A DNA stretch of 64,000 bases from Octopus sinensis (Eukaryota), in the NCBI RefSeq assembly GCF_006345805.1, contig NC_043009.1, forward strand, positions 64,976,001 to 65,040,000, given 5' to 3'. Position 1 is the first letter of the stretch. Each line of letters begins with the position of its first letter. Both the position numbers and the translations under genes were made by a program. Of the stretch, positions 15,801-24,689 are shown one piece after another. Below the pieces are notes generated by a model. The model had not been told where the DNA came from and did no database searches. It saw only the letters and a program-made list of their open reading frames with translations.

Positions 15801-17476
15801 CATGTTCCACTTTCGATAGAGAAATCCTTATAAAATTATTTATTCTAAAGTTATTTATTTCATTTGTCAGGACGAAATTATTGTCAGGAATAATCACAGA
15901 ATATGATTGGCATAGACTTTTCCCTGTCCTAATCGATAGAACTTCAGATTATCGATCACTAGAAGAAAGCAACTTTGAAGACAATCCACGTGGTGGGAGA
16001 TCATCAACTGCGACCACTTACATAAATCGCCAGCGACTGGAAGATGTAATTCGAAGTAACAAATCAGTCACGATTCGTGAGTTTGCTGCACTCTTGATCT
16101 GTGGTCGCAATGCATCACAAAAGATGGTGGACAAACTTTGAAAGTGGATGCAAAGTGGACGCCCTGATAGCTGACACCCAATTTGAAATGGAGAAGAAGA
16201 GAAGTCTGCTTTGATCGCAGGGGATGAAATGTGAGCGTATCTTTATGATCGAGAAACGAAAGCTTCGTCCATTGAATGCCACCACAGCTCTTCTCCAAGA
16301 ACTAAGAAGTTCAAAAGCAAATTTTCAGCACAGGAATCGCTGGCGATTGTTTTGGGAAAGGACAAAAAGTGCCTTTGACCCTAATTATTTGGAACATGCT
16401 TGTATCGTAAACAGCGACCGATACATTGAGATTCTCAAAAAGCTTAGAGGAGCCATTAAGAGGAAGACGCCGAATAAGAATCTGGAAACGATTGACCTCT
16501 GCTATGAGAATGCGTGTCTGCATACATCTTTGGTAACAAAATAGACAATTGGAAAACTGGGCTGGTCAGTGGTCCTCTGTCCGTCGTAATACCCGGATCG
16601 ACGCTCACGGATTTCAACTTGTTTGGTTCAATGGAGGACTGTCTTTGAAGACAATCACTTGATGCGGTGAAAGCGACTCTGAAGGAGTGGGCACAACGAG
16701 TGTGCCAGTCTTGAGTGCAACAATGGCACAAAAATCTCTTGCAATGGAGACTATGGTGAGTCGTACCTTTCAATAGGGGAAGCATCACTGCAGGCATGTG
16801 TAATATGACGGACCTATGTCAATTAATAAAAGAGTTATATATATATATTGTAAAATGGACAGCATAGTTTACCGTTTTTTCAACTACTAAAAAATGCTTC
16901 ATATCAAGAGTCAGCCAAATGGCAACTAAGCAGCGAGCGGCCAAGGTGGCGAGCTGAGAGAAACGTTAGCACGCCGGCGAAATGCTTAGCGGTATTTCGT
17001 CTGCCGTTACGTTCTGAGTTCAAATTCTGCCGAGGTCGACTTTGCCTTAAATAAGTACCGTTTACGCACTGGGGTCGATATAAGCGACTTAATCCGTTTG
17101 TCTGTCCTTGTTTGTCCTCTCTGTGTCTAGCCCTTTGTGGGTAGTAAAGAAATGGGTAACTAAATCGTGTGGTACAGACCATGTAATAAATCGATAAATA
17201 AATAGTCCTGTATTCTGAGAAGAGAAATGATTGGAATGGAAGATTAAAATTGATTTGTTTCTTTTCAGGATCAGTTGTATGGGAACTGCTTCAACGTTTG
17301 GGCGTCTCGGAGCCGTTAGCGCCCCTCCTATTCTTGGACTCACTTCTTATGCATCATGGCTCCCTCTAAGCGTCTTTGGAGTGTTGGGAATAGTTTCTGG
17401 TTTACTGACATTATTGCTTCCGGAAGTGAAAGATGCATCTTTACCACAGACTGTGGAAGATATGGAAAAACTGTAA
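3516..17476 (+). CDS. SLC22: SLC22-family transporter (OCT/OAT/OCTN-like), copy A; 8 coding exons, start codon not securely located
   Basis: Exons 3516-3889, 6487-6590, 7231-7385, 8144-8312, 11242-11535, 14991-15205, 15677-15785 and 17269-17476 are all AG/GT bounded and splice in frame (1628 nt +1 upstream nt = 543 codons including TAA). Motifs: GGYGYFQ, 4-Cys first loop ending SIVSE|FDLVC, LADRFGRRR, PESPRWL, YYG, IELPA, FGHRKP, GKFG, AEIFPT.IR, LLPE. Confidence 0.95.
4801..5630 (-). mobile_element. Penelope-like element fragment, copy A intron 1 only
   Basis: WKRYLDD, YYKPTDS..YL...SCHP, NIPFNLAKRICTIVS, CxxxNCxIC; arm homology breaks at 4800. Confidence 0.85.
6487..6590 (+). CDS. SLC22 copy A exon 2 (FDLVC...LADR)
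   Basis: atacag| ... |gtaaat; 104 nt; [34 protein letters not shown]. Confidence 0.93.
7231..7385 (+). CDS. SLC22 copy A exon 3 (TM3-TM4)
   Basis: tttcag| ... |gtgagt; 155 nt; [51 protein letters not shown]. Confidence 0.93.
7419..8065 (-). mobile_element. Non-autonomous Helitron-like element (family 2), present in both arms
   Basis: Reverse complement of 40837-41519; internal repeat TTACCGTTAATAAG..TAGCCATGAAAC at ~7444 and ~7811. Confidence 0.6.
8144..8312 (+). CDS. SLC22 copy A exon 4 (TM5-TM6)
   Basis: tttcag| ... |gtaagt; 169 nt; AIRDWQHLQ motif. Confidence 0.93.
8338..8824. mobile_element. MITE with ~35-bp TIRs, copy A intron 4 only
   Basis: GAGCCAGCCCCGATTTGATTAGACTTGAAGCTCCA (8338-8372) versus its imperfect reverse complement at 8790-8824; absent at the homologous site in copy B (~38470). 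Confidence 0.75.
8910..10345 (-). mobile_element. Fragments of R4/Dong-like (RLE clade) non-LTR retrotransposons
   Basis: ETEALIRAAQEQAIRTN...C...HIV...LAQ.EYKRHD (degenerate CCHC region) and RLE-type C-terminal remnants. Confidence 0.75.
11242..11535 (+). CDS. SLC22 copy A exon 5 (PESPRWL, central loop)
   Basis: ctacag| ... |gtaaat; 294 nt. Confidence 0.93.
12382..12890 (-). mobile_element. Non-autonomous Helitron (family 1)
   Basis: 3' end on minus strand CCCGAGCAACGCCGGG-CGATACTG-CTAG; body related to the copies at 32302, 38692 and 49338. Confidence 0.75.
13190..14040 (-). mobile_element. Penelope-like 3' remnant (GIY-YIG) with inverted terminal pLTR segments
   Basis: KYIGLASTSFKRRFRN..LAHHVWNLK; 13199-13264 is an imperfect inverse of 13954-14017; 13190-13475 is shared with 29905-30190. 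Confidence 0.7.
14991..15205 (+). CDS. SLC22 copy A exon 6 (TM7-TM9)
   Basis: ttgcag| ... |gtaatt; 215 nt; YYG, IELPA, FGHRKP. Confidence 0.93.
15677..15785 (+). CDS. SLC22 copy A exon 7 (TM10)
   Basis: ttgtag| ... |gtgagt; 109 nt; [29 protein letters not shown]. Confidence 0.93.
15880..16860 (+). mobile_element. Degenerate mariner transposon (mirror copy ~26350-27320, minus strand)
   Basis: [11 protein letters not shown]...[11 protein letters not shown] and [20 protein letters not shown]...ENA..H remnants; same lesions in both arms. Confidence 0.75.
16930..17150 (+). mobile_element. tRNA-derived SINE family 1, copy A only, with ~13-bp TSD; other copies (minus strand) at 20565-20690, 28245-28478, 36680-36912, 61760-61992, 62320-62515, 62520-62752
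   Basis: GGCGAGCTG..GAAACGTTAGCACGCC...GAGTTCAAATTC (B box)...GTCGAT...GTAGTAAAGAAAT; TSD AAATGG(C/GT)AACTAA; empty site at ~24785. Confidence 0.8.
17269..17476 (+). CDS. SLC22 copy A terminal exon (TM11-TM12)
   Basis: tttcag|; ends EDMEKL-TAA; AATAAA at 17688-17693. Confidence 0.92.
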
Positions 17477-24481: not shown

Positions 24482-24689
24482 TTACAGTTTTTCCATATCT
24501 TCCACAGTCTGTGGTAAAGATGTATCTTTCACTTCCGGAAGCAATAATGTCAGTAAACCAGAAACTATTCCCAACACTCCAAAGACGCTTAGAGGGAGCC
24601 ATGATGCATAAGAAGAGAGTCCAAGAATAAGAGGGGCGCTAATGGCTCCGATACTCGAAAACGTTGATGCAATTCCCATACAACTGATC
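24482..24689 (-). CDS. SLC22 copy B terminal exon
   Basis: Reverse-complement homolog of 17269-17476; polyA signal (tttatt on +) at 24292-24297. Confidence 0.92.

Follow-up and report, generated by a model that had tools for sequence, protein, structure and literature searches.

Known SLC22 transporters and the gene pair of Octopus sinensis

The choice between anions, zwitterions and cations in the SLC22 family has been studied mostly with mutated human proteins, which are 30-40% identical to one another, and single replacements at the arginine of TM11 mostly abolish transport. The remodelling of a pocket after gene duplication is a known theme. For OCTN2, passages of PMC12780140 describe a salt bridge between R471 and the carboxylate of carnitine, which is argued there to be necessary for efficient transport, and state that Q207 reaches the carboxylate via water and that F443 is a member of the cation cage; according to earlier work cited in them, Y211F lowers the transport of carnitine and not that of TEA. 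For OCTN1, excerpts of PMC13669368 give Q207, I208, Y211, C236, F239, F441 and R469 as the contacts of ergothioneine, and the correspondence of the TM11 site among the human proteins is also given in them. In OAT1, R466A and R466K are non-functional, and K382 and G227 bind alpha-ketoglutarate, in the account given in parts of PMC10643130. In excerpts of PMC11811179 the URAT1 substitution R477S, identified in renal hypouricemia, is described as a loss-of-function allele that favours the outward-facing state; its activity is reduced according to an excerpt of PMC11937972, and it appears in table rows of PMC6086067. The binding position of urate in URAT1 is described as different in an excerpt of PMC12267519. 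In OCT1, D474 has a mostly structural role together with K214 (PMC10567722) and thus the TM11 site is not a simple charge switch.

The window, which is the whole 64-kb stretch of O. sinensis DNA that was analysed, holds two intact SLC22 genes arranged tail-to-tail. When the window was compared with itself they were seen to form an inverted duplication, in which about 3.4-17.8 kb matches 45.4-24.2 kb. Copy A (3516..17476, plus strand) has its coding exons at 3516-3889, 6487-6590, 7231-7385, 8144-8312, 11242-11535, 14991-15205, 15677-15785 and 17269-17476, and copy B (24482..51182, minus strand) has nine at 51182-51122, 45268-44895, 42464-42361, 41707-41553, 38657-38489, 34296-34003, 29848-29634, 27528-27420 and 24689-24482. 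The eight coding exons per copy that can be aligned come to 1628 bases with AG/GT boundaries and are free of indels; 541 codons are in open frame, and 53 of them encode different residues (about 90% identity). The first coding exon of A was not found on searching the 64-kb window and falls outside it, and the protein matches included no full-length O. sinensis protein of the A type. Copy B is identical from residue 22 on to O. sinensis XP_029643942.2 (P0003), after which residues are numbered here (for example Glu418, Lys471, Asp479 and S506), and a search of B for a stop, a frameshift or a broken splice site found none. Matches to Pfam PF00083 and PF07690 and an SLC22 fold with an extracellular domain after TM1 place the genes in the SLC22 family of the MFS. 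The AlphaFold (AF2) model of B has a pLDDT of 91, its top 49 Foldseek rows are all SLC22, and by fold it matches OCTN2, URAT1, OATs and OCTs, the top match being 9pdq with a TM of 0.82.

Some introns are 97-99% identical between the copies, and between the genes lies a direct tandem duplication of 1.08 kb (22167-23240 and 23149-24225, 98.5% identity) that is either recent or an assembly overlap; both would be consistent with A and B being alleles or haplotigs joined through assembly error. Such an error is very improbable, however, since both types of exon 8 were present in three of the four runs examined (depths of 47.6 and 30.8 in X1, 45.5 and 36.3 in X3, and 2.7 and 3.9 in X5), the copies have 53 residue differences and unlike transposon insertions, and O. 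vulgaris has the same R/S pair, as two models with consecutive accessions, one with Arg and one with Ser. The remaining run, X4, had exon 8 of the A type only, at a depth of 5 that is too shallow to show the absence of the B type. Both O. vulgaris models are without several exons and the regions that can be compared are TM1, the cytoplasmic loop and TM10-12.

The repeats in the window include Penelope-like retroelement remnants on the minus strand (1088-3200, with a GIY-YIG match at 1091-1723, and 4837-5700, a second one recognised by eye in A's intron only), Mariner/Mos1-type transposase remnants (25312-26109 on the minus and 45983-46369 on the plus strand), an inverted repeat of 465 bases and 92.7% identity between the gene ends (17988-18452 and 19502-19942) and a MITE-like imperfect palindrome of 307 bases in B's intron only (42951-43257). 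A block of 1.36 kb is common to intron 7 of both copies with 97.5% identity (15492-16848 and 26357-27712); by eye it resembles a transposase remnant, and the ORF tested was without a Pfam match. There is also a degenerate G+A-rich minisatellite (54550-55470), whose periods are near 31, 50, 159 and 207 and in which each strand has long open frames, and an open stretch of 235 codons (33137-33844, plus strand) that by eye resembles a LINE C-terminus and has no Pfam match. A SINE-like family of 235 bases (16943-17153, 28242-28480, 36674-36913, 61753-61991 and 62520-62754) had a very high summed contig depth in RNA-like runs at the two of its copies that lie inside the stretch compared with the runs.

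Which runs are RNA was a guess. In runs so taken, A-type contigs spanning several exons were found in X6, X10 and X14; of the B type there was, among the pieces listed, one contig of 148 bases with a depth of 2.8 in X10, and its 28 unaligned letters at the exon edge are consistent with splicing. These contig depths are unfit for ranking the expression of A against that of B. Editing of A to I is common in cephalopods, and by such editing the AGT codon of B (24653-24655, minus strand) could become GGT, which encodes Gly, the residue of the CarT/BalaT type; in the one X10 contig listed for B the codon is unchanged.

The TM11 site and the substrate pocket

The preliminary description had placed an Arg codon, CGT, in A at 17303..17305 (plus strand) and a Ser codon, AGT, in B at 24653..24655 (minus strand) at the TM11 site that is R466 in OAT1. 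Both codons read as it stated, that of B encoding S506, its last-exon translations and the G>S, R>S, L>I, V>I and P>L differences were all found, and its equivalence of the Arg was borne out on alignment to family members, as residue 12 of A's last exon aligns without gaps with OAT1 466, URAT1 477, OCTN2 471 and OCT1 474. The P>L change belongs to A and not to B, the outgroup having Leu, and at the G>S and L>I sites the outgroup shows a third state. Among 121 aligned proteins, which are the 120 best of 1226 matches and P0002, and of which P0034 and P0122 are poorly aligned at the site, there were 91 Arg, 12 Gly, 9 Asp, 2 Ser, 2 Lys, one each of Gln, Asn and Tyr, and 2 gaps; both Ser rows are B orthologues. 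The 162 domains found in 140 of 141 further proteins, drawn from the best 150 of a second protein search, had 128 Arg and 2 Ser, the latter in a distant Argonauta paralogue (P0142) and in P0196, which groups with BalaT/CarT-like rows. In the octopod clade, 24 of the 25 rows cover the site, with 22 Arg, 1 Lys and 1 Ser (B). P0009 has Lys here, and Gly is found in the proteins annotated as transporters of carcinine or beta-alanine. That Ser might be common in molluscs was considered and rejected, as it is in none of the five alignable named non-cephalopod mollusc proteins, two of which are non-Arg, though the sample is small. On this alignment Arg is the default and the ancestral state, found in A, and Ser, the derived state of B, is rare but not unique. 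The earlier idea that A keeps, and B has lost, a carboxylate-binding Arg is thus supported, but the Arg of A cannot be taken as a mark of anion transport since as the family default (91 of 121 and 128 of 162) it is not predictive alone.

At the seven OCTN1 contact positions listed above, which were mapped via a shark OCTN2 homologue, the residues are Q, S, Y, H, F, F and R in A and M, S, F, H, F, W and S in B. With the contacts as given in those excerpts, the two copies differ at four of the seven (Q>M, Y>F, F>W and R>S; p=0.002), all four being derived in B, and when the Arg site is excluded at three of six (p=0.013). The first three of these changes, which accompany R>S, were absent from the preliminary description, as was the loss of function that R>S causes in URAT1. 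Both Q>M (OCTN Q207 site) and Y>F (OCTN Y211 site) lie in the TM3-TM4 exon of B (41553..41707, minus strand), and F>W lies in its TM10 exon (27420..27528, minus strand) at the site of OCTN2 F443 and OAT1 F438, adjoining an Asp479 that is kept in A and B. On a wider list of 20 pocket sites 5 differ (p=0.037), and without the two sites picked in the preliminary description 3 of 18 (p=0.24), so that the enrichment is limited to that end of the site which binds the carboxylate. The columns of Q207 and Y211 are variable among the octopod paralogues, and the OCTN-like residue set of A, as seen in the alignment, may be partly due to chance.

The pocket of B had also been called neutral, which does not agree with the retention of Glu418, Lys471 and Asp479, the last being at the site of OAT1 N439 and OCT1 Q447; as a count of residues and not of electrostatics, A has a net charge of 0 (E, K, D and R) and B of -1, that is, B is net acidic with an unpaired Asp in TM10. 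In the TM7-TM8 exon of B (29634..29848, minus strand), where Glu418 is kept, the Cys of A that follows ELPA does align with rat OAT1 382, and B has Gly, as had been proposed. As a signal of charge this difference fails: there is no Lys in either copy, and the column is hypervariable among 24 octopod paralogues (8 Asn, 4 Ser, 2 Gly, 2 Cys, 2 Tyr and others), so that the site is silent on charge and speaks against A being OAT-like.

Ten core residues are identical in A and B (N56, H249, F252, W386, Y393, Y394, E418, K471, D479 and Y482). This would be expected if both carried the same class of substrates and B differed in affinity, ion dependence or tissue, with Trp478 and Gln226 compensating for the Arg. 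The Arg of OAT1 also has roles in chloride regulation and gating in the parts of PMC10643130 cited above, and one relative of the Gly type carries the annotation of a beta-alanine transporter, both of which favour this view. We consider it rather unlikely, however, because the Arg, Gln and Tyr changes all fall on positions of carboxylate recognition in OCTN2 as described in the passages of PMC12780140.

Direction of change, selection and possible gene conversion

Among the matches O. bimaculoides has one A-like gene, split over the consecutive models P0124 and P0002. In the tree A and B are sisters with O. bimaculoides outside (100/93), and both lie within an octopod clade of 25 rows (100/100) with the vertebrate OCTN apart. 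A search of shorter relatives for further orthologues gave 4 matches and no new orthologue. Of the 53 differences, 27 are derived in B, 7 in A, 9 show a third state and 10 are without outgroup cover; among the 34 that can be polarised the excess in B is significant (p=8e-4). The 10 uncovered differences lie in the cytoplasmic loop and with Argonauta as the outgroup are symmetric (4 in A, 3 in B and 3 with a third state). It was found that 26 of the 27 B-derived changes are in membrane helices, compared to 297 of 452 covered columns (p=1e-4) and to 16 of 26 changes on the stem and in the outgroup (p=0.002), which is not what uniform decay would give. The extracellular domain of 83 residues has only 2 differences between A and B, and the differences in TM1, TM10 and TM11 are common to the O. 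vulgaris pair.

These data have to be weighed against the explanation that B is redundant and has been weakened under relaxed selection, with R>S crippling gating and binding as in URAT1 and no stop or frameshift having arisen yet. This is the main rival, less probable than the shift of substrates preferred below. Apart from R477S being a loss-of-function allele of URAT1, the changes of B do not avoid conserved columns: 5 struck the 106 highly conserved columns, where 6.3 were expected at random, compared to none of 33 other changes (p=0.015). Of these five replacements all but one (G>A, A>S, M>V and I>L) are mild, and the pattern, judged from the alignment, is as compatible with relaxed constraint as with adaptive change. 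The pairwise dN between A and B is 0.051 and the dS 0.065, that is, a dN/dS of 0.79; the RNA evidence for B is thin compared to the long contigs of A; and the O. vulgaris B model, P0004, is without several exons, as is the A model. What is difficult to reconcile with a weakened copy is that the changes of B are so nearly confined to helices with the extracellular domain spared and the loop symmetric, that there is no exon indel in 1628 bases and that the pocket changes are retained in a second species, although changes in the extracellular domain could have been erased by gene conversion.

The most diverged of the eight alignable exons is the third, which encodes TM3-TM4 (41553..41707 in B) and is called exon 3 here: 22 of its 155 bases differ (14%), against 8 of 627 (1.3%) in the adjoining intron, while all aligned non-coding DNA, which includes repeat copies that are perhaps not orthologous, differs at 269 of 5816 positions. 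The dN/dS of exon 3 is 1.79, and its replacement rate is higher than the rate in all non-coding DNA (p=3e-5) and in the two most diverged introns (p=0.025), but compared to its own silent rate it is not significantly raised (p=0.59). In exon 8, 9 of 10 differences lie within the first 75 bases. Sites 44, 111 and 467 disagree with the paralogue tree when the two species are compared; at site 111 Gln is found in both window copies, and Leu in the outgroup and in both copies of O. vulgaris. This distribution suggests gene conversion around segments that are kept different, a reading of the sequences that rests on few sites. A collapsed contig of 150 bases common to A and B in X1 and X3 was not taken to indicate conversion, since single differences are merged by assemblers. 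Between B and the B-type contig of X5 (depth 3.9) there are 3 silent changes and 1 replacement (p=0.057).

Comparison with known transporters and meaning of the pair

Compared to OCTN1 and OCTN2 (SLC22A4/A5), A has the equivalents of Q207, Y211, F/Y239, W351, Y358, E383, K436, F443, Y447, S467 and R471, of which B changes Q207, Y211, F443 and R471, but the identity is 27% and the clade is apart. The two-charge pocket of OCTN, made of the TM11 Arg and the TM8 Glu, is present in A only, B having Ser, and of the residues for Na+ and its coupling N32 is kept whereas Q180 is Thr/Val and N210 is Ser. At the contact position C236 both copies have His. Like OAT1 (SLC22A6), A has R466, S462, T463, Y353, Y354 and F438 equivalents, the TM11 Arg being in A only, but both copies are without K382 (Cys/Gly) and G227 (His), and N439 is Asp. 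OCT1-3 (SLC22A1-3) are the best sequence matches of B, which shares with them the lack of the Arg; the equivalent of their E386 is E418 in both copies, but this Glu is family-wide and not diagnostic, and at 474 there is no Asp (Arg/Ser) and no K214 partner (Ser), the extra acidic residue being one helix away at the Q447 site. The insect CarT and BalaT proteins of SLC22 have a small residue, Gly, at the TM11 site where so annotated, and since their clade is apart the loss of Arg in B was independent. The URAT1 R477S structures (PDB 8WJG/8WJQ) carry the identical Arg>Ser at the homologous site, but there it is a lone disease allele whereas in B it is common to the annotations of two species and comes with three other pocket changes. 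By tree and alignment A and B are thus SLC22 proteins of an octopod-specific clade that lack some defining features of each of OAT, OCT and OCTN, and the pocket of A is, on paper, most OCTN-like.

The explanation that we prefer, with moderate confidence and from the sequences of the pair, is that B is a young duplicate in which the carboxylate subsite was lost and the substrates shifted to carboxylate-free solutes, probably cations. A would likely still carry zwitterions or other carboxylate-bearing solutes, its Gln, Tyr, Phe and Arg together with the Glu forming what we infer to be an OCTN-like two-charge pocket without Na+ coupling. In B the Met, Phe, Trp and Ser would do away with the anchor of the carboxylate, widen the aromatic cage and leave Asp479 without a partner, and its most plausible substrates would be organic cations. 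Selection likely holds the pocket segments apart and gene conversion evens out the flanks. We count in favour of such a shift the intact frame and splice sites, the bias of helix-confined changes to B, the four of seven contacts, the differences shared with O. vulgaris, the silent bias of the X5 contig, the divergence of exon 3 beside its intron and the Gly of the annotated carcinine and beta-alanine transporters. Counted against it are the loss of function in R477S, OAT1 R466A and R466K, the need of OCTN2 for R471, the rate at conserved columns, the overall dN/dS, the exon 3 and 18-site tests, the thin RNA of B and the variable Q207 and Y211 columns; in addition, BalaT, of the Gly type, carries a zwitterion, so that loss of the Arg does not imply cations. 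A stronger version, which we put forward tentatively, is that B became cation-specialised recently from a zwitterion carrier by a route unlike that of the vertebrate OCTs, in which the TM11 Arg was deleted, the pre-existing TM10 Asp and an added Trp were used and no TM11 Asp was gained, while selection shielded the segments from conversion and four swaps flipped the charge selectivity.

Sixteen O. sinensis SLC22 models among the matches (within P0003, P0009-P0031 and P0162) all list a contig of 72,296,471 bases, and the ones included in the tree belong to one octopod clade. They probably represent a large, clustered expansion whose pocket columns are hypervariable. In the open-licence literature no description of the A/B pair or of an octopod SLC22 family or expansion was found in print. 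If B is dead or equal to A, the pair is an ordinary duplicate. As a natural pair that is 90% identical and has four pocket changes it makes the choice of charge directly testable and may show how R>S is rescued, and if the stronger version is true, charge selectivity would have been flipped via a substitution that in human URAT1 is a disease allele.
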